Source of the DNA: a virus
Lineage: Duplodnaviria > Heunggongvirae > Uroviricota > Caudoviricetes
Direction: 5' to 3' (one strand)
Virus record (IMG/VR): IMGVR_UViG_2537562092_000003
Length of the DNA stretch: 28,548 nucleotides
The notes under the pieces are model-generated. The model had not been told where the DNA came from and did not search any database. It saw only the letters and a program-made list of their open reading frames with translations. How positions within the stretch are numbered: position 1 is the stretch's first letter; each line of letters starts with the position of its first letter. Shown here one piece after another: positions 2,518 to 20,804 of this stretch. Made by a program: the position numbers and the translations under genes.

Positions 2518-4898
2518 TAGATTGACTCCCCCACCTGAGCATCAGTCAATGCCTTGTGCCATATTCTGAAATTCCTGACATGACCAAATAAATGACGTAA
2601 CCCGGCTGTAGTCTGGCCTCCAATACGGATAATTGCGGTGTTCTGAATACAGGACCATGTGGTTTTTGTTTCGCTGGATATATGCCCGTTACTTACTGAG
2701 CACGTAGACTGCTCTGACTTTACACGCATCCCCATAACCATTTTTTCAAGCGATGCGTTTTCGTTTACCCGTCTGTTAGCTCCTCCAATATCGCAATAAG
2801 GAAATCCGTCGTAATCTGTTGAACGACCGAAGCCAAGAATAATAGCCGCTCCGGTTTGATGACCGCCGGTATCAAAAACACGTGGCGCTGCATTTGGCGT
2901 TTTATACCAGTTCTTATGTACCTCACAAAGAACCGTAAAAGGAAGATTATAAAGATTATTCTTAATTGGAACTGTAACTATATCGCTTGCGCGGGTCGCC
3001 GCCGTCGCTCCTGATATAATAAAAGATGATACACAAGGCCCATCTTCTACTTGTGGGGTGGCCAGATAAATATAGTCACCAGATACGGTTGCCCCGCTCT
3101 GCTTAGGAGAATACTGTATCTGAGAGCCTATTTTTAACTCCCCATCAATTGCCTGAATTGTTGCCTCTGCAAAAATCCATCCGGTAGCTTCGTCCTTTCT
3201 GACTCTCGCTGTAATCCTTGAGGCAGCACCGCCTGTCATATTAATTTCAAGCGTTTGTGTATCAATATACGCATCACCAAGAAAAGTTGTTGCGCTACCG
3301 TCATATTTATCAAACCGGATACGCAACCTTACCTGCAGTTCTGTTTTAAAACGACATGAGGTTGTCACGTGTTTATTATCGCCTGAGACATCAACTGACT
3401 TTGTTGCAGCAATTGATGCCATATTAATGGCTGAGGTTTGCCCAATCAGAGAATCGTTGCAGACAAACTTTCCATAGGTAAAACCAAAATTATCCGTCCC
3501 TGTTTCGGGCACATCCATATTTGACGATCGCCCCCAACTGGCAGGGCTTTCCGAATTGAGCATGTAGTTTGTTCTTTGCCCCTCAATAAGCAGGCCATCA
3601 CGTTCAAATCGTGGCTCGTCAATGGCAGCCTCTGTCAGCACACCAGATTTGTTAATATAGGTTGCTTTCGATGCACGTTTAAACTTAACAATCTTGTCGC
3701 CAGGCATCGTTATTTCATCGTCACCAATAACAATTTTTTTATATGACGGCGAAAAGCCCGTAATCATATCCAGCGAATCGTTAAATGGTATCCACACATC
3801 AGGCAGCGGCTGTAAGACATATTTATACGGCTCCGCAGCCTGGCTTGCGTACTCTCTGGCTGCATCTTCGCTTGCTTTAGCTGCCGTCTGGCTTGCTGCC
3901 GATGCTTTCGCTGAGTTCGCAGCCGCTGTTTCGCTCACCTTTGCGTTGGTTTCACTGGTTTTTGCTGCTTTTTGACTGTTAGCTGATGCAGTGGCAGAAG
4001 CAGCCGCCGCGCTTGCAGAACTGGCTGCGGCACTCTCGCTTTGAGCCGCTGCATCCTGACTGCTTTTCGCCGCAGTTTCACTGGCTTTGGCATTCGTTTC
4101 GCTGGTCTTCGCTGCCGTCTGGCTGGACTTTGCGTTAGTTTCACTCGTCTTCGCAGCTTTCTGGCTGTTAGCCGCAGCAGTTGCTGATCCAGCTGCTGAA
4201 GTCGCAGAACCGGCTGCCGCGCTCTCGCTTTGGGCTGCTGCAACCTGGCTGTTTTTTGCCGCAGTTTCACTGGCTTTAGCATTCGTTTCGCTGGTTTTCG
4301 CTGCCGTCTGGCTGGACTTTGCGTTGGTTTCGCTCGTCTTTGCGGCTGTCTCACTGTTTTTCGCGTTGGTTTCTGATTTTTTGGCTGCTGTCGCGGAGTT
4401 TGCCGATGCAGTCTGTGAGGTCGCTGCCGCCTGTGCGCTGTTAGCTGCATTCGTTTCTGAGGTTTTCGCCGCGTTCTTCGATGATGCCGCTGCAGTTTCG
4501 GATTTCTTTGCCGCCGCTGCGCTCTGAGAGGCGGCTTCAGCGTTGCGTGCCGCTTCTTCCACCATTTCCTCAAAACGACGCAATGCCTCCGGCATGACAT
4601 CATCTTCCGTCATGGCACCGAGAAAATCATTCAGCGTACCTGGTCTGGAACCTTCATAGACGGTAATGGTCCCGGCATGTGAAGGCGGAAAACCTTCAAC
4701 CAGCAGGGTGACGCTGTACTGGCCATACTCAACATCCATGCTGTAACGCCCGGCTTCATCCGGATTTTCAGAGGCCACCGTGTTCACCAGTACCGTGGTG
4801 CTGTTACGCTTTGCCTTCAGTTGAATAGTGCAGTTCTGTATTGGTTTTCCCGCACCATCTTTCAGCACACCTGAGATTTTTACTGCTGCCATATCCAC
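2517..4898 (-). CDS. stfR: Side tail fibre protein (Stf-like); N-terminus lambda/Rac Stf-like, C-terminal receptor-binding part different
   Basis: N-terminus AVKISGVLKDGAGKPIQNCTIQLKAKRNST...GRYSMDVEYGQYSV matches lambda Stf as recalled; long (KTSETNAKxSETAAK)n repeat tract. True start may be the ATG at 4892. Confidence 0.75.
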   Translation of the reverse strand: MDMAAVKISGVLKDGAGKPIQNCTIQLKAKRNSTTVLVNTVASENPDEAGRYSMDVEYGQYSVTLLVEGFPPSHAGTITVYEGSRPGTLNDFLGAMTEDDVMPEALRRFEEMVEEAARNAEAASQSAAAAKKSETAAASSKNAAKTSETNAANSAQAAATSQTASANSATAAKKSETNAKNSETAAKTSETNAKSSQTAAKTSETNAKASETAAKNSQVAAAQSESAAAGSATSAAGSATAAANSQKAAKTSETNAKSSQTAAKTSETNAKASETAAKSSQDAAAQSESAAASSASAAAASATASANSQKAAKTSETNAKVSETAAANSAKASAASQTAAKASEDAAREYASQAAEPYKYVLQPLPDVWIPFNDSLDMITGFSPSYKKIVIGDDEITMPGDKIVKFKRASKATYINKSGVLTEAAIDEPRFERDGLLIEGQRTNYMLNSESPASWGRSSNMDVPETGTDNFGFTYGKFVCNDSLIGQTSAINMASIAATKSVDVSGDNKHVTTSCRFKTELQVRLRIRFDKYDGSATTFLGDAYIDTQTLEINMTGGAASRITARVRKDEATGWIFAEATIQAIDGELKIGSQIQYSPKQSGATVSGDYIYLATPQVEDGPCVSSFIISGATAATRASDIVTVPIKNNLYNLPFTVLCEVHKNWYKTPNAAPRVFDTGGHQTGAAIILGFGRSTDYDGFPYCDIGGANRRVNENASLEKMVMGMRVKSEQSTCSVSNGHISSETKTTWSCIQNTAIIRIGGQTTAGLRHLFGHVRNFRIWHKALTDAQVGESI
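3848..4553. repeat. Imperfect tandem DNA repeats inside stf encoding the Ala/Ser/Thr/Lys-rich repeat tract
   Basis: Near-identical blocks visible by eye, for example 4080-4150 versus 4260-4330. Confidence 0.7.
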
Positions 4899-18012: not shown

Positions 18013-18759
18013 TTACTTCTCAATTCCTGGCTGACCAACATTCGGGCGCCAGCTCTCCCAGTTAAAATTCACCCATCGCCCGCCGTTCATGGTCATCCGA
18101 TCCATAATCCTCTCGCCGAGCAATGTTTTCATGGCCTCATAGTTCAGGTTTGTCAGCATCCCCACGCTGCGGATCGACGCTGTCCGGCGATCAACAATCT
18201 GGTGCAGTACCACCTGCTCGTTTTTTGTCTCGCGCTGAATGCCAATTTCATCAAGAACCAGCAGATCCACTTCGCACAGTTCCCGCAAAAATTTTTCGCC
18301 TGATTGCCCGTCGTCATAGCTGGCGTGTAGAGCACTCATAACATCAGCCACGGTAACCACAATCACTGTCTGACCGTTTTTCAGCAGGCGATTCCCGATA
18401 GCCGCCGCCAGATGGTTTTTTCCGGTACCAGGTTTTCCGCTAAACGCAAAATTTGTACACCCGACCATCAGTTCATCGGCGATGGATTTCGCCTGGCTCA
18501 ACGCGTATCGCTGGCCGTCGTTCTGCACCTGGTAATTCGAAAACGAGCATTTGCGGTGCAACGGCTGGATGCCGGAGCGATTCAGAATTTTTTCCACCCG
18601 CAACTGACGATTCTGGCGATTGATCTCCTCGCAACGTTTCTGGCCTTCTGCAAGTTGCCACTCGCGCCACTCCGCCACCGTCCTGAATGGCGCGGTTACA
18701 TGTGGCGGGGCCAGTCTGCGGATACGTTCCAGAACGCCGCCTGTCGCAATATTTTTCAT
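18013..18759 (-). CDS. ydaV: DnaC-like replicative helicase loader (IstB-like AAA+ ATPase)
   Basis: Walker A GKPGTGKNHLA and Walker B DLLVLDEIG. Confidence 0.8.
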   Translation of the reverse strand: MKNIATGGVLERIRRLAPPHVTAPFRTVAEWREWQLAEGQKRCEEINRQNRQLRVEKILNRSGIQPLHRKCSFSNYQVQNDGQRYALSQAKSIADELMVGCTNFAFSGKPGTGKNHLAAAIGNRLLKNGQTVIVVTVADVMSALHASYDDGQSGEKFLRELCEVDLLVLDEIGIQRETKNEQVVLHQIVDRRTASIRSVGMLTNLNYEAMKTLLGERIMDRMTMNGGRWVNFNWESWRPNVGQPGIEK

Positions 18760-18765
18760 GGTCAG

Positions 18766-19554
18766 TTACCCCCTGAAGCCTGGCGGGATCGCACTGTCCG
18801 GAAACGAGACAGTGTTAACCTGTCGGAGCAACGTCTCAGGCCGAACACTTTTCGGCGCGAACAAGCCCTGGTATTCATTGGCGATGCTGTGTCGAATCAC
18901 CTGCTCAGGGGTAAAACCCTGCTGGCGGAATTTTTCCAGTTCCCGTATCGCCCCGTTAGCGCCCTGCTCCGTTCGAATCGGTTTTCGCAATGCCTGCCTG
19001 AACTGGACCCACTCATTCCAGAGTGTTTCTGGCAACCAGTCGGGCAGAGCAATGGCCTCCGGCTCGAATTGTTTAGACGCTCGTTTTTGCCGAGGGGGAT
19101 TTAGGGGGAGATCAGTATTTATATCTTCCTCTTCCTCTTCCTCTGGTAACGCTTTTTGATCCGTTTGTGTAACGCTGGCAGCGTTACCTTTTCGCTTCAG
19201 TTCGCGTATTTTTGTAACTCTCTCGTTTGTAACCGCCCGTTTTTTCGAGCTTTTTCCGTTATGACGCTCAAAGTTTGGTAGTGAAAGCACTCCATCACTT
19301 TCGACCAGCCATCCAACCTGAATTAACGCATCAGCAAAACCAGCCATAAAAGTGATACGGTCTATTGCACTTTTTGTAACGCCTCGAGCGTTACACTCTG
19401 CGTTACCGTCTATCATTTGTTGATCCGCCCATGCCCAGAAGCGAATGACTTTCCCTAATGCGGCATCTGGATCAATATTCAGAATCTCAGCAAGCCTGAA
19501 TATTTCCGGCTTATCCGGCGTAATAACTTCGAGCTTTATCCAGTTTGAAGCCAT
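18766..19554 (-). CDS. Replication initiator / replisome-organiser-like protein
   Basis: First gene of the replication pair upstream of the DnaC-like gene; acidic low-complexity linker (EEEEEED); contains the GTAAC repeat array. Confidence 0.6.
   Translation of the reverse strand: MASNWIKLEVITPDKPEIFRLAEILNIDPDAALGKVIRFWAWADQQMIDGNAECNARGVTKSAIDRITFMAGFADALIQVGWLVESDGVLSLPNFERHNGKSSKKRAVTNERVTKIRELKRKGNAASVTQTDQKALPEEEEEEDINTDLPLNPPRQKRASKQFEPEAIALPDWLPETLWNEWVQFRQALRKPIRTEQGANGAIRELEKFRQQGFTPEQVIRHSIANEYQGLFAPKSVRPETLLRQVNTVSFPDSAIPPGFRG
19146..19236. repeat. Cluster of GTAAC/GTTAC repeats including the 19-bp palindrome GTAACGC-TGGCA-GCGTTAC (19169-19187)
   Basis: Read directly; falls in the codons for the initiator's interdomain linker (RAVTNERVTKIRELKRKGNAASVTQTDQ). 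Confidence 0.6.
19376..19394. repeat. 19-bp palindrome GTAACGC-CTCGA-GCGTTAC (second copy)
   Basis: Read directly; inside the initiator coding sequence (encodes CNARGVT); an extra GCGTTAC half-site at 19400-19406. Confidence 0.6.
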
Positions 19555-19567
19555 TTGTTTTCACCTT

Positions 19568-19586
19568 GTAACGCTCGCAGCGTTAC
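19568..19586. repeat. 19-bp palindrome GTAACGC-TCGCA-GCGTTAC (third copy) in the leader upstream of the initiator gene
   Basis: Read directly; followed by a second inverted repeat CCGAAC-aaaaca-GTTCGG. Confidence 0.6.
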
Positions 19587-19631
19587 ATTTAACTGATACC
19601 GAACAAAACAGTTCGGTACGATTAATTTCAA

Positions 19632-20054
19632 TCAATGCACTACGACAGAATCGCTAGGAGAACCGCCGCCGCTGAAATGTGCTTTACGGTAAACGGCCTG
19701 GACTGCATCATCATGCGCATCAATTGCCGTACTCAGTGCATCCTGTGCCGCCAGTAATGCACGGCGTTCCAAGGTATCGAAGATGCAGAGTCGGTGACGC
19801 AGCTCGCGAGGAAGAATTGCCAGAACCGCAGGGATCAGTTTCTGAATTTTTTCCCTTTGCGCATTCGTTTCACCTTTCAACCAACGATGATAGATATTCT
19901 GCTGATTGTTCCAGTCCTTGCCTGGTACCAGGGGCAATTCGCCGCCCCCCTGGTGCAGATATTCTTCAGTAATTGCGTTAGCGACCCACGCCTGCCCTTT
20001 TTCGGCTGCCAGGGCTAACAACACTGATTCGATGTGCTCATGCTTGATTTTCAT
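19632..20054 (-). CDS. ydaT: YdaT-like protein (Rac immunity-region toxic protein)
   Basis: 140 aa, MKIKHEHIESVLLALAAEKGQAWVANAITEEY..., matching K-12 YdaT as recalled. Confidence 0.8.
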   Translation of the reverse strand: MKIKHEHIESVLLALAAEKGQAWVANAITEEYLHQGGGELPLVPGKDWNNQQNIYHRWLKGETNAQREKIQKLIPAVLAILPRELRHRLCIFDTLERRALLAAQDALSTAIDAHDDAVQAVYRKAHFSGGGSPSDSVVVH

Positions 20055-20305
20055 GAATCAACTCCCATCAGCTTTTTCGTAGTAGTTTTATTTCTGCCAA
20101 TAGTTAAAATTGCATCGGCAGAAAATAATCCGTTTGATGCATGAGCGATTTTTTCAGCGTAATTTGTTTCGCCGGTATATTCTGTGCGAGGCAATTTTCC
20201 GTTATCCATCCATTTGTAGATTGCTCTTTGGCTGACACCACAAACGTCGGCCACAACAGAAACGCGAACAGTTTTGATTACATCTTCAAGTGTTTTCTGG
20301 TTCAT
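20051..20305 (-). CDS. ydaS: Cro-like HTH regulator, divergent from the repressor
   Basis: Start MNQKTLEDV at 20305 with SD GAGGA; HTH VCGVSQRAIYKWMDNG. Symbol assigned by synteny only. Confidence 0.55.
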   Translation of the reverse strand: MNQKTLEDVIKTVRVSVVADVCGVSQRAIYKWMDNGKLPRTEYTGETNYAEKIAHASNGLFSADAILTIGRNKTTTKKLMGVDS

Positions 20306-20384
20306 ATCATCCTCACAATGTGAACTTTGAGTACATGCTATAACAGAACTGACAGTACATTCAAGAGCGAATATCATTGAACTT
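20306..20384. promoter_or_regulatory. Divergent promoter/operator region (OR-like) with AGTACAT half-sites
   Basis: AGTACAT at 20330-20336 and 20354-20360 between the divergent cro-like and repressor genes. Confidence 0.5.
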
Positions 20385-20804
20385 ATGGTTCATGAAGATA
20401 AAGCGCGTAAAGAGTTCGCCAGTAGGCTTGCGCTAGCCTGTGAAAACGCTGGTTATGAACAACATGGAAGGCAGGCAGAAATTGCCCGTCGAATGAAATT
20501 AACACCAAAAGCGGTTAGCAAATGGTTTAATGGTGAAACAATTCCTCGCCGAGAGAAATTAAGGGAATTAGCAACACTCATTGGAACAACACCAACCTAT
20601 CTTTTGGGAGAGGATACAGAAGAAAGTGGACAGATACGTTTCTATCAGGAGTTAAATCCAAGACAAAAAATCATCATTGACCTTCTGGACGAGCTCCCTG
20701 ACAGTGAGACAGATGAACTTTTAAAAACTCTTGAGGAGAAAAAACAGAAGTACAATGCAATTTACGAAGAGTTAGCACGAAAGAAAAAACAAAAAGCCTC
20801 TTAA
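20385..20804 (+). CDS. CI-like immunity repressor (XRE-family HTH)
   Basis: N-terminal HTH (QAEIARRMKLTPKAVSKWFNGETIP), acidic charged C-terminus; divergent from the cro-like gene. Confidence 0.7.
   Translation: MVHEDKARKEFASRLALACENAGYEQHGRQAEIARRMKLTPKAVSKWFNGETIPRREKLRELATLIGTTPTYLLGEDTEESGQIRFYQELNPRQKIIIDLLDELPDSETDELLKTLEEKKQKYNAIYEELARKKKQKAS

Follow-up and report, generated by a model that had tools for sequence, protein, structure and literature searches.

The 28,548-bp stretch of DNA analysed here (IMG/VR record IMGVR_UViG_2537562092_000003, referred to below as the window) is 100% identical to several Escherichia coli chromosomes and represents a Rac prophage, with intR beside ttcA, xisR, recET, ralR, kilR, sieB, ydaF and trkG in its neighbourhood. 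Its replication module contains an initiator gene (18766-19554, minus strand) that encodes a protein of 262 amino acids (aa), composed of an N-terminal domain (residues 1 to about 122; hereafter the N-domain), a disordered linker and a C-terminal domain (the C-domain). The gene ydaV (18013-18759, minus strand) starts 7 bp downstream and encodes a DnaC-like helicase loader (PRK12377, 504.6 bits; DnaC equivalog, 304 bits). The subject of this analysis is an array of short palindromes, within the initiator gene and upstream of it, that we consider to be candidate binding sites of the initiator and the probable origin of replication of the prophage.

The palindrome GTAACGC-N5-GCGTTAC (GTAACGCNNNNNGCGTTAC) has exact matches at 19169-19187 (P1), 19376-19394 (P2) and 19568-19586 (P3), and no others in the window. 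These three perfect copies had been reported in a preliminary description of the same DNA; an exact search of the window reproduces them, and since 100 out of 100 dinucleotide-preserving shuffles contain none, chance is excluded as their source. The clustering of half-sites that was described together with them is likewise real: the window has 12 perfect 7-mer half-sites, 8 of which lie inside 19146-19586, and the other 4 are scattered across about 28 kb, where the chance expectation is about 3.5. Pentamers of the type GTAAC/GTTAC amount to 10 per 460 bp at the site region versus 2.07 per kb window-wide.

The sites fall into three clusters. The most upstream one, in the 5' leader, is P3 (GTAACGC-TCGCA-GCGTTAC), located at -32 to -14 from the ATG of the initiator and directly abutting its Shine-Dalgarno sequence AAGGTGA (19561-19567). 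The next, designated the first in-gene cluster, consists of a half-site GCGTTAC at 19400-19406 (coding sequence nt 149-155, codons G50-N-A52) and of P2 (nt 161-179, codons C54-T60) at 12 bp from it, which together make up a triplet with the orientations > > <. The second in-gene cluster comprises two degenerate half-sites, GTAACCG (19229-19235; 5 of 7 matches) and GTAACTC (19214-19220; 6 of 7 matches, and perfect at nt 335 in several relatives), the perfect palindrome P1 (nt 368-386, codons G123-T129), and a half-site GTAACGC at 19146-19152 (nt 403-409, codons A135-L-P137). The latter is 23 bp away from the closer half of P1, is read in a different frame, falls inside an 'ALP' motif that is found family-wide, and is 96% conserved. 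The peptides are C54-N-A-R-G-V-T60 for P2 and G123-N-A-A-S-V-T129 for P1, in the identical reading frame, so that the two in-gene copies had correctly been read as Asn-Ala...Val-Thr codons. The dense cluster described at 19146-19236 also exists, but its assignment to the codons of the acidic linker does not hold, as it adjoins these codons (E138-D144, 19123-19143) on their 5' side in the orientation of the gene.

The acidic-linker codons themselves contain, directly 3' of the second cluster, a polypurine tract of 21 nt, AGAGGAAGAGGAAGAGGAAGA (19124-19144, minus strand), which is the longest purine/pyrimidine run of the window. Around it, the segment 19106-19145 combines a G+C minimum of 0.375 with the least stable 30-mer of the replication genes, and is our candidate unwinding region.

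Conservation of the sites in relatives

Searching IMG/VR for exact copies of the palindrome gave at least 120 loci. A homologue of the N-domain (tblastn, 28-100% aa identity) accompanies the palindrome in 101 of the 120 listed, and in nearly all of these 101 the palindrome is located inside the coding sequence of that homologue. It is often doubled, the copies being 192-260 bp apart, and its 5-nt spacer is free to vary. The first site is nearly always translated as x-N-A-x-x-V-T; the second mostly likewise, with V-T-x-x-A-L instead in about 17 of the listed loci.

Relatives were also sampled by peptide patterns taken from the conserved FxRHNGxTAK stretch, and not by the palindrome. This gave a viral sample of 69 distinct regions (44-100% aa identity to the initiator) and a genome sample of 79 loci from species-representative genomes of Beta- and Gammaproteobacteria, Planctomycetota, Akkermansia, Kiritimatiellae, and bacteria of the Candidate Phyla Radiation. 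All 69 viral regions carry three or more half-sites, in nearly all cases at nt ~149-173 and ~335-427, and 27 of the 79 genome loci do likewise. In most relatives the site of the first cluster begins at nt 149, while the second cluster holds 1 to 5 half-sites, each extra half-site adding 4 codons to the initiator. Neighbouring half-sites are spaced by 12 bp (260 cases), 23 bp (56) or 33 bp (14), i.e. in steps of about one helical turn. The upstream palindrome recurs in 46 of the 69 viral relatives, within leaders that otherwise cannot be aligned, and in 2 of the 79 genome loci (L210 and L215, both Paraburkholderia). In the genome sample the density of half-sites between -150 and +560 of the gene start is 2.46 per kb, versus 0.13 in the flanks, an enrichment of about 19-fold, and sites are retained in homologues with as little as ~35% aa identity. 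Four viral contigs with close relatives of the gene (L166, L168, L171 and L172) have all their sites intact with the second palindrome at nt 369 or 370 rather than 368, a shift by 1-2 nt relative to the start codon that implies an insertion, deletion or frameshift in the initiator gene; they may be decaying prophages.

Across 69 distinct relatives of the window sequence the half-sites are 95-100% conserved, as compared with 58-77% for the spacers; for P2 the values are 100% and 99.8% for the two half-sites and 58% for the spacer. Third-codon positions are conserved at 0.92 within half-sites versus 0.70 elsewhere (Mann-Whitney p = 4e-5, which is indicative only, the sequences being related). 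Among 81 palindromes scored at the second cluster, 53 are read in frame 1 (NA..VT) and 25 in frame 0 (VT..AL). The use of two reading frames, the free spacers, and the conservation of third positions lead us to conclude that selection acts on the DNA. As to the partner of the sites, in 75 divergent site-carrying loci the other proteins of the module are nearly absent (C-domain, 2 loci; YdaV, 5; RacR-like protein, 1; YdaT, 0), leaving the N-domain as the only consistent one. Only two plasmid records contain the N-domain, and both are phage-like; in one of them, a 41-kb circular Pusillimonas plasmid, the initiator and an adjacent gene for an 'ATP-binding protein' are the only candidate replication genes.

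An equivalent of the polypurine tract, usually (GAGAA)n, is found in 145 distinct relatives; its median length is 21 nt, and in 128 of them it is the longest such run of the locus. Nearly all loci of the two series L121-L200 and L202-L281 display a perfect (GAGAA)4-8 after the second cluster, at nt ~380-430, translated as R-E-E-K-R-R-E-E-K. Such a 5-nt period within coding sequence suggests that the tract is constrained as DNA.

The initiator protein and its predicted specificity

The initiator belongs to phrog_2509, annotated in PHROG as 'replication initiation protein', and the match to the 'O-like' PHROG 678 covers residues 85-237 only. NCBIfam gives a marginal match restricted to the C-terminus of DnaT. 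When the initiator and 23 diverse members of its family were compared with Pfam at E <= 0.1, no match appeared except for four unrelated ones of single members; in these scans the N-domain did not match the N-terminal domain of lambda O (Phage_rep_O), and a sequence search of the PDB with the N-domain found no solved relative. The N-domain family is nevertheless large: a full HMMER scan at E <= 1e-3 retrieved 6,506 cluster representatives (clusters at 50% identity). An AlphaFold2 model of the initiator, with a mean predicted local distance difference test (pLDDT) score of 68, contains a confident helical N-domain with a beta-hairpin (residues ~10-95), a basic helix (102-122), a disordered segment (123-175), and a helical C-domain. 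The codons of the first site (residues 50-60, including P2) correspond to a low-confidence loop of the N-domain, and those of the second (residues 123-137, with P1) to the start of the disordered linker. Fold searches with the model returned weak matches only, many of them to winged-helix domains; the modelled N-domain is therewith compatible with, albeit not diagnostic of, a winged-helix DNA binder.

The division of the initiator into two domains is apparent from PHROG, from the structure model and from comparison with E. coli K-12. The C-domain is shared with YdaU of K-12 MG1655 (residues 139-262, 78% identity) and the N-domains are unrelated: that of YdaU is DUF1376, and 6 kb of the K-12 locus contain no GTAACGC. 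With only the C-domain in common, the window represents a Rac variant whose specificity domain has been exchanged, in the manner of classic lambdoid mosaics. The O-like proteins of Gifsy-1 and Gifsy-2 align to the initiator from residue 89 onward (36% identity), over a span that includes the conserved basic FxRHNGxSxKKR helix, whereas YdaU aligns only from residue 139. The initiator therefore has recombination joints at no fewer than two places.

The sequence of the sites changes with the N-domain. Genome loci that lack GTAACGC have other 7-mers, assigned by k-mer counting and not by a formal motif test, in the same > > < geometry and in two clusters within the gene: GTCACGC in one clade (nt 138/149/161 and 346-399), GTAGACG in another (nt 142-178 and 358-386), and GTCCGCA in a third (nt 55/66/78 and 334-390). 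The class of half-site largely tracks the clustering of N-domain sequences, and the peptide at the first site shifts along with the DNA, from G-N-A for GTAACGC to G-H-A for GTCACGC. The site sequence thus covaries with the N-domain, the presumed specificity domain of the initiator. When alignment columns were tested crudely against the class of half-site in a search for the specificity residues, the only columns to emerge were ones in the site-encoded loop or confounded by phylogeny.

Repeats of a different kind are present in K-12 ydaU (L201, NC_000913.3). The sequence (A/G)TGTTCAAACA occurs there twice, 33 bp apart, together with a perfect inverted copy (3011-3021, 3044-3054 and 3068-3078 of that locus), in linker codons just before an A+T-rich stretch that contains GATC. 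The homology of K-12 ydaU with the window begins at GATC...CCCCCTAAATCCCCC, just after these repeats. Weaker copies lie at 2763-2774 and 2848-2859, and GCTGATGTT(C/G)AA occurs twice in the DUF1376 codons. The K-12 ydaU repeats are candidate iterons of oriJ, the origin that was reportedly defined genetically for the K-12 Rac prophage by Diaz et al. in 1979 and by Potrykus et al. in 2000. Mention of oriJ is made in PMC3945230, and the reference list of PMC11014345 points to earlier work on it; a nucleotide-level description of it, or of the GTAACGC palindrome, was not found in the accessible literature.

Candidate origin and competing explanations

We interpret the palindromes and half-sites as cognate sites for the initiator that their own gene encodes; together they would form the origin of this Rac-type prophage, and we estimate the probability of this reading at about 0.72. 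That the initiator would be the protein bound had been proposed in the preliminary description; the comparisons above support it in that the sites are kept at the DNA level in homologues, in two frames and with strong enrichment around the gene, with a half-site that follows the N-domain clade. The likeness to the origin of lambda (ori-lambda) drawn at the same time is supported too, as sites in the codons between the two domains are followed by a low-stability, strand-asymmetric tract, and then by the adjoining gene of a helicase loader.

In the proposed mechanism, initiator dimers would bind the 7-5-7 palindromes through their winged-helix-like N-domain, and extra subunits would fill the flanking half-sites, mostly at 12 or 23 bp. 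The complex at the second cluster (19146-19187), possibly bridged to the first cluster about 207 bp away, could then destabilise the tract at 19106-19145. Finally, the C-domain, common to K-12 YdaU and resembling O and DnaT, would bring in the complex of the DnaC-like YdaV with DnaB. P3 most likely would allow the initiator to hold down read-through transcription of the initiator gene, or else would be a third anchor of the origin complex; both roles are suggested by its position against the ribosome-binding site and by its recurrence in otherwise unalignable leaders. A promoter consensus scan of the gene strand detected none for the initiator or around P3, and P3 therefore cannot be called a classical promoter operator. 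The other sites lie in coding DNA and occupy stretches that the protein can accommodate, namely a surface loop and the disordered linker, where they dictate the local peptide x-N-A-x-x-V-T. In this scheme the existence of the sites, their DNA-level conservation, their covariation with the N-domain and the layout are observed, while binding, unwinding, recruitment of the loader and autoregulation are inferred.

Several observations weigh against this interpretation. No published binding or origin activity was found for this sequence or for members of the family. The sites extend over some 440 bp as three separate clusters, unlike the single compact block of iterons in lambda. The instability of the candidate unwinding tract is modest (62% A+T; nearest-neighbour z = 1.67, the 95th percentile of the window), and the interval 18900-19700 contains neither a DnaA box (with up to one mismatch) nor a consensus site for integration host factor (IHF). 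Distances between clusters range from 204 to 243 bp, mostly as multiples of 3 plus the frame offset, and no helical phasing is seen. The conservation statistics rest on phylogenetically related sequences. Lastly, about half of the distant genome sample is without GTAACGC, and depends on the alternative 7-mers obtained by counting.

Some of these points would suit a purely regulatory role, in which the initiator binds its sites for autorepression, as a roadblock to read-through or for copy control of the handcuffing type, with the origin elsewhere in the prophage. The position of P3 next to the ribosome-binding site, the dispersed clusters, the modest tract, and the lack of DnaA and IHF sites all fit with it. 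However, the two in-gene clusters are universal and the upstream copy is present in a subset only, a conserved polypurine tract always follows the second cluster, lambdoid origins occupy the same position in the gene (PMC7466680), and the replication module showed no further array of repeats; regulation alone is for these reasons an unlikely explanation. The module also encodes several helix-turn-helix regulators, and the palindromes might be operators of one of them (YdaT, YdaS or the RacR-like repressor) or of a host factor. We find this very unlikely. YdaT has its own box, TTGATT-N6-AATCAA, with a perfect copy at 20044-20061; YdaT and YdaS are missing from the 75 divergent site-carrying loci, where a RacR-like protein is met once; and the hosts, which range from Enterobacteriaceae to Planctomycetota and Akkermansia, together with a half-site that differs from one N-domain clade to the next, do not fit a host factor common to them all.

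Each palindrome can also fold as an RNA hairpin, with a stem of 7 bp and a loop of 5 nt, that could act on translation or stability of the mRNA; P3 adjoins the ribosome-binding site, and a scan called the copy at 19169-19187 terminator-like on the plus strand. Yet the stem sequence is fixed within a clade, free of compensatory substitutions, and such hairpins cannot form from the many copies that are arranged as direct repeats (> > > <) at 12-bp spacing or occur as single half-sites, which makes a role in the RNA highly improbable. Least probable of all is that the repeats are a by-product of a conserved N-A-x-x-V-T protein motif, devoid of any role in cis. It is true that P1 and P2 share frame and peptide pattern, and that DGNAxSVT is widespread in the family, but this reading is contradicted: P3 is non-coding, 25 of the 81 scored palindromes of the second cluster use the other frame, synonymous positions are more conserved in half-sites than elsewhere, and the motif sits in a low-confidence loop and a disordered linker, with a peptide that changes along with the half-site.

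A broader alternative, possible in our opinion if rather doubtful, is that the locus represents not a lambda look-alike but a distinct and widespread class of origins, belonging to an initiator family of about 6,500 clusters that writes its own sites into its gene. This family spans Enterobacteriaceae to Planctomycetota and Verrucomicrobiota, and its half-site clusters, about 200-300 bp apart, would bracket part of the codons for the DNA-binding domain. On this account (GAGAA)n could be an unusual unwinding or triplex-prone element that replaces the A+T-rich tract. The conserved peptides G-N-A-x-S-V-T, A-L-P and R-E-E-K-R-R-E-E-K of the family would then be imposed mainly by the needs of the DNA in cis and not by protein function, and a loop of DNA around an oligomer of the initiator would connect the two clusters.

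By analogy, the locus is best explained as the functional counterpart of ori-lambda, with an N-domain from outside the lambda O family. Origins within the initiator gene are also found in lambdoid relatives, among them the Stx (Shiga toxin) phages P27 and 933W, and P22 (gene 18), phi80, 82 and 21. The middle of gene O holds both the iterons of ori-lambda and an A+T-rich tract, and O grows in length when iterons are added: in Stx phages two iterons account for 13 added aa (PMC7466680), to be compared with the 4 codons per extra half-site in the present family. Both systems have an origin, a probable one in the present case, within the coding sequence of the initiator, with dyad-symmetric binding sites (here, predicted) in codons between a DNA-binding N-domain and a C-domain that contacts the loader (roles likewise predicted here), and an easily melted, strand-asymmetric tract on the 3' side, for which we have a candidate. 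In both, the site sequence covaries with the N-domain, and C-domains are exchanged as modules. The differences are also substantial. The N-domain of the Rac variant has no detectable sequence relation to lambda O; the four to six tandem iterons of 18-19 bp in lambda are replaced by 7-5-7 palindromes and half-sites, mostly 12 or 23 bp apart, in three clusters separated by about 200 bp, one of them in codons of the structured N-domain and one in the 5' leader; the 40-bp A+T-rich block has as its counterpart a polypurine repeat of about 62% A+T; and the loader is DnaC-like instead of lambda P.

Iteron plasmids with an autoregulated Rep protein, such as P1 (repA with incC/incA), F and pSC101, offer a second comparison, since there too repeated sites lie beside or overlap the expression signals of rep, and one protein could both fire the origin and repress itself, as proposed for P3. 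Plasmid iterons are, however, non-coding direct repeats of 17-22 bp, usually accompanied by DnaA boxes, whereas all sites but P3 are coding here and the DnaA boxes are lacking over the interval given above.

Prophage context and significance

The locus is that of the K-12 Rac prophage (intR-ttcA junction, recET, kilR, sieB, trkG) and has the same module order, ydaS-ydaT-initiator-ydaV, with the closely similar C-domain already mentioned. In view of the unrelated DUF1376 N-domain of K-12, with its (A/G)TGTTCAAACA linker repeats and without GTAACGC, the origin specificity of the window differs from that of K-12 Rac. The 1.7-kb replication module is covered for at least 80% in 617 of 5,426 complete E. 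coli genomes.

Upstream of the initiator gene are the genes for a YdaT/CII-like regulator (19632-20054, minus strand), a Cro/YdaS-like regulator (20051-20377, minus strand), and a RacR/CI-like repressor (20385-20804) that is divergent from the replication genes. YdaT is known to recognise TTGATT-N6-AATCAA (PMC9986795, PMC11879457). The perfect YdaT box of the window, TTGATTTTCATGAATCAA, overlaps the start codon of ydaT, and matches the site footprinted in K-12 Rac (PMC11879457) as well as the CP-933P consensus (PMC9986795). A second candidate box at 19618-19635, at the ydaT stop codon and with 2 mismatches, was rejected as being at chance level (5 matches in the window versus 3.1 expected). 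The intergenic region between ydaT and the initiator gene contains an 8-bp stem-loop (19597-19618, minus-strand RNA). In the variant met most often among relatives, the 5' arm differs at three positions (A>G, A>G and C>U); all three changes still pair as G.U in the sense RNA and would give C.A mismatches in the antisense RNA. Because pairing is kept in the sense RNA only, this element points to a structure of the gene-strand mRNA and not to the plus-strand terminator flagged there by a consensus scan.

Elsewhere in the window, the small RNA antitoxin RalA (26814-26992, minus strand; Rfam, 225 bits) adjoins ralR, and two tRNA genes detected with Rfam (11726-11797 and 11804-11876, minus strand), annotated as tRNA-Gly and tRNA-Thr in an identical genome, lie in the late region. 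At ~940-2170 (1243-2471 in L282) the tail-fibre region has received an insertion, an IS3-family transposase that uses a programmed frameshift, and several tail genes near it are annotated as truncated pseudogenes. The insertion and the truncated genes make a morphogenesis defect of the prophage probable, even if the replication module has stayed intact.

What does this candidate origin mean for the Rac prophage and for its initiator family? It provides a nucleotide-level candidate for the origin of a common Rac variant, and a provisional function for a protein that RefSeq labels as 'hypothetical protein'. The lambda paradigm is left unchanged, an origin inside the initiator gene being the expected arrangement; it is the initiator family that is uncharacterised, and a large family without a Pfam model is now exposed, whose cognate sites may be read from the gene itself. 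In practical terms, the sites could help to predict incompatibility or cross-activation of replication modules between co-resident prophages, and they suggest synonymous mutations that would disable the prophage origin and leave the protein unaltered. Within the family, specificity changed between clades while the layout remained constant, which would make it a natural system for the co-evolution of a protein with its DNA sites under an overlapping coding constraint.

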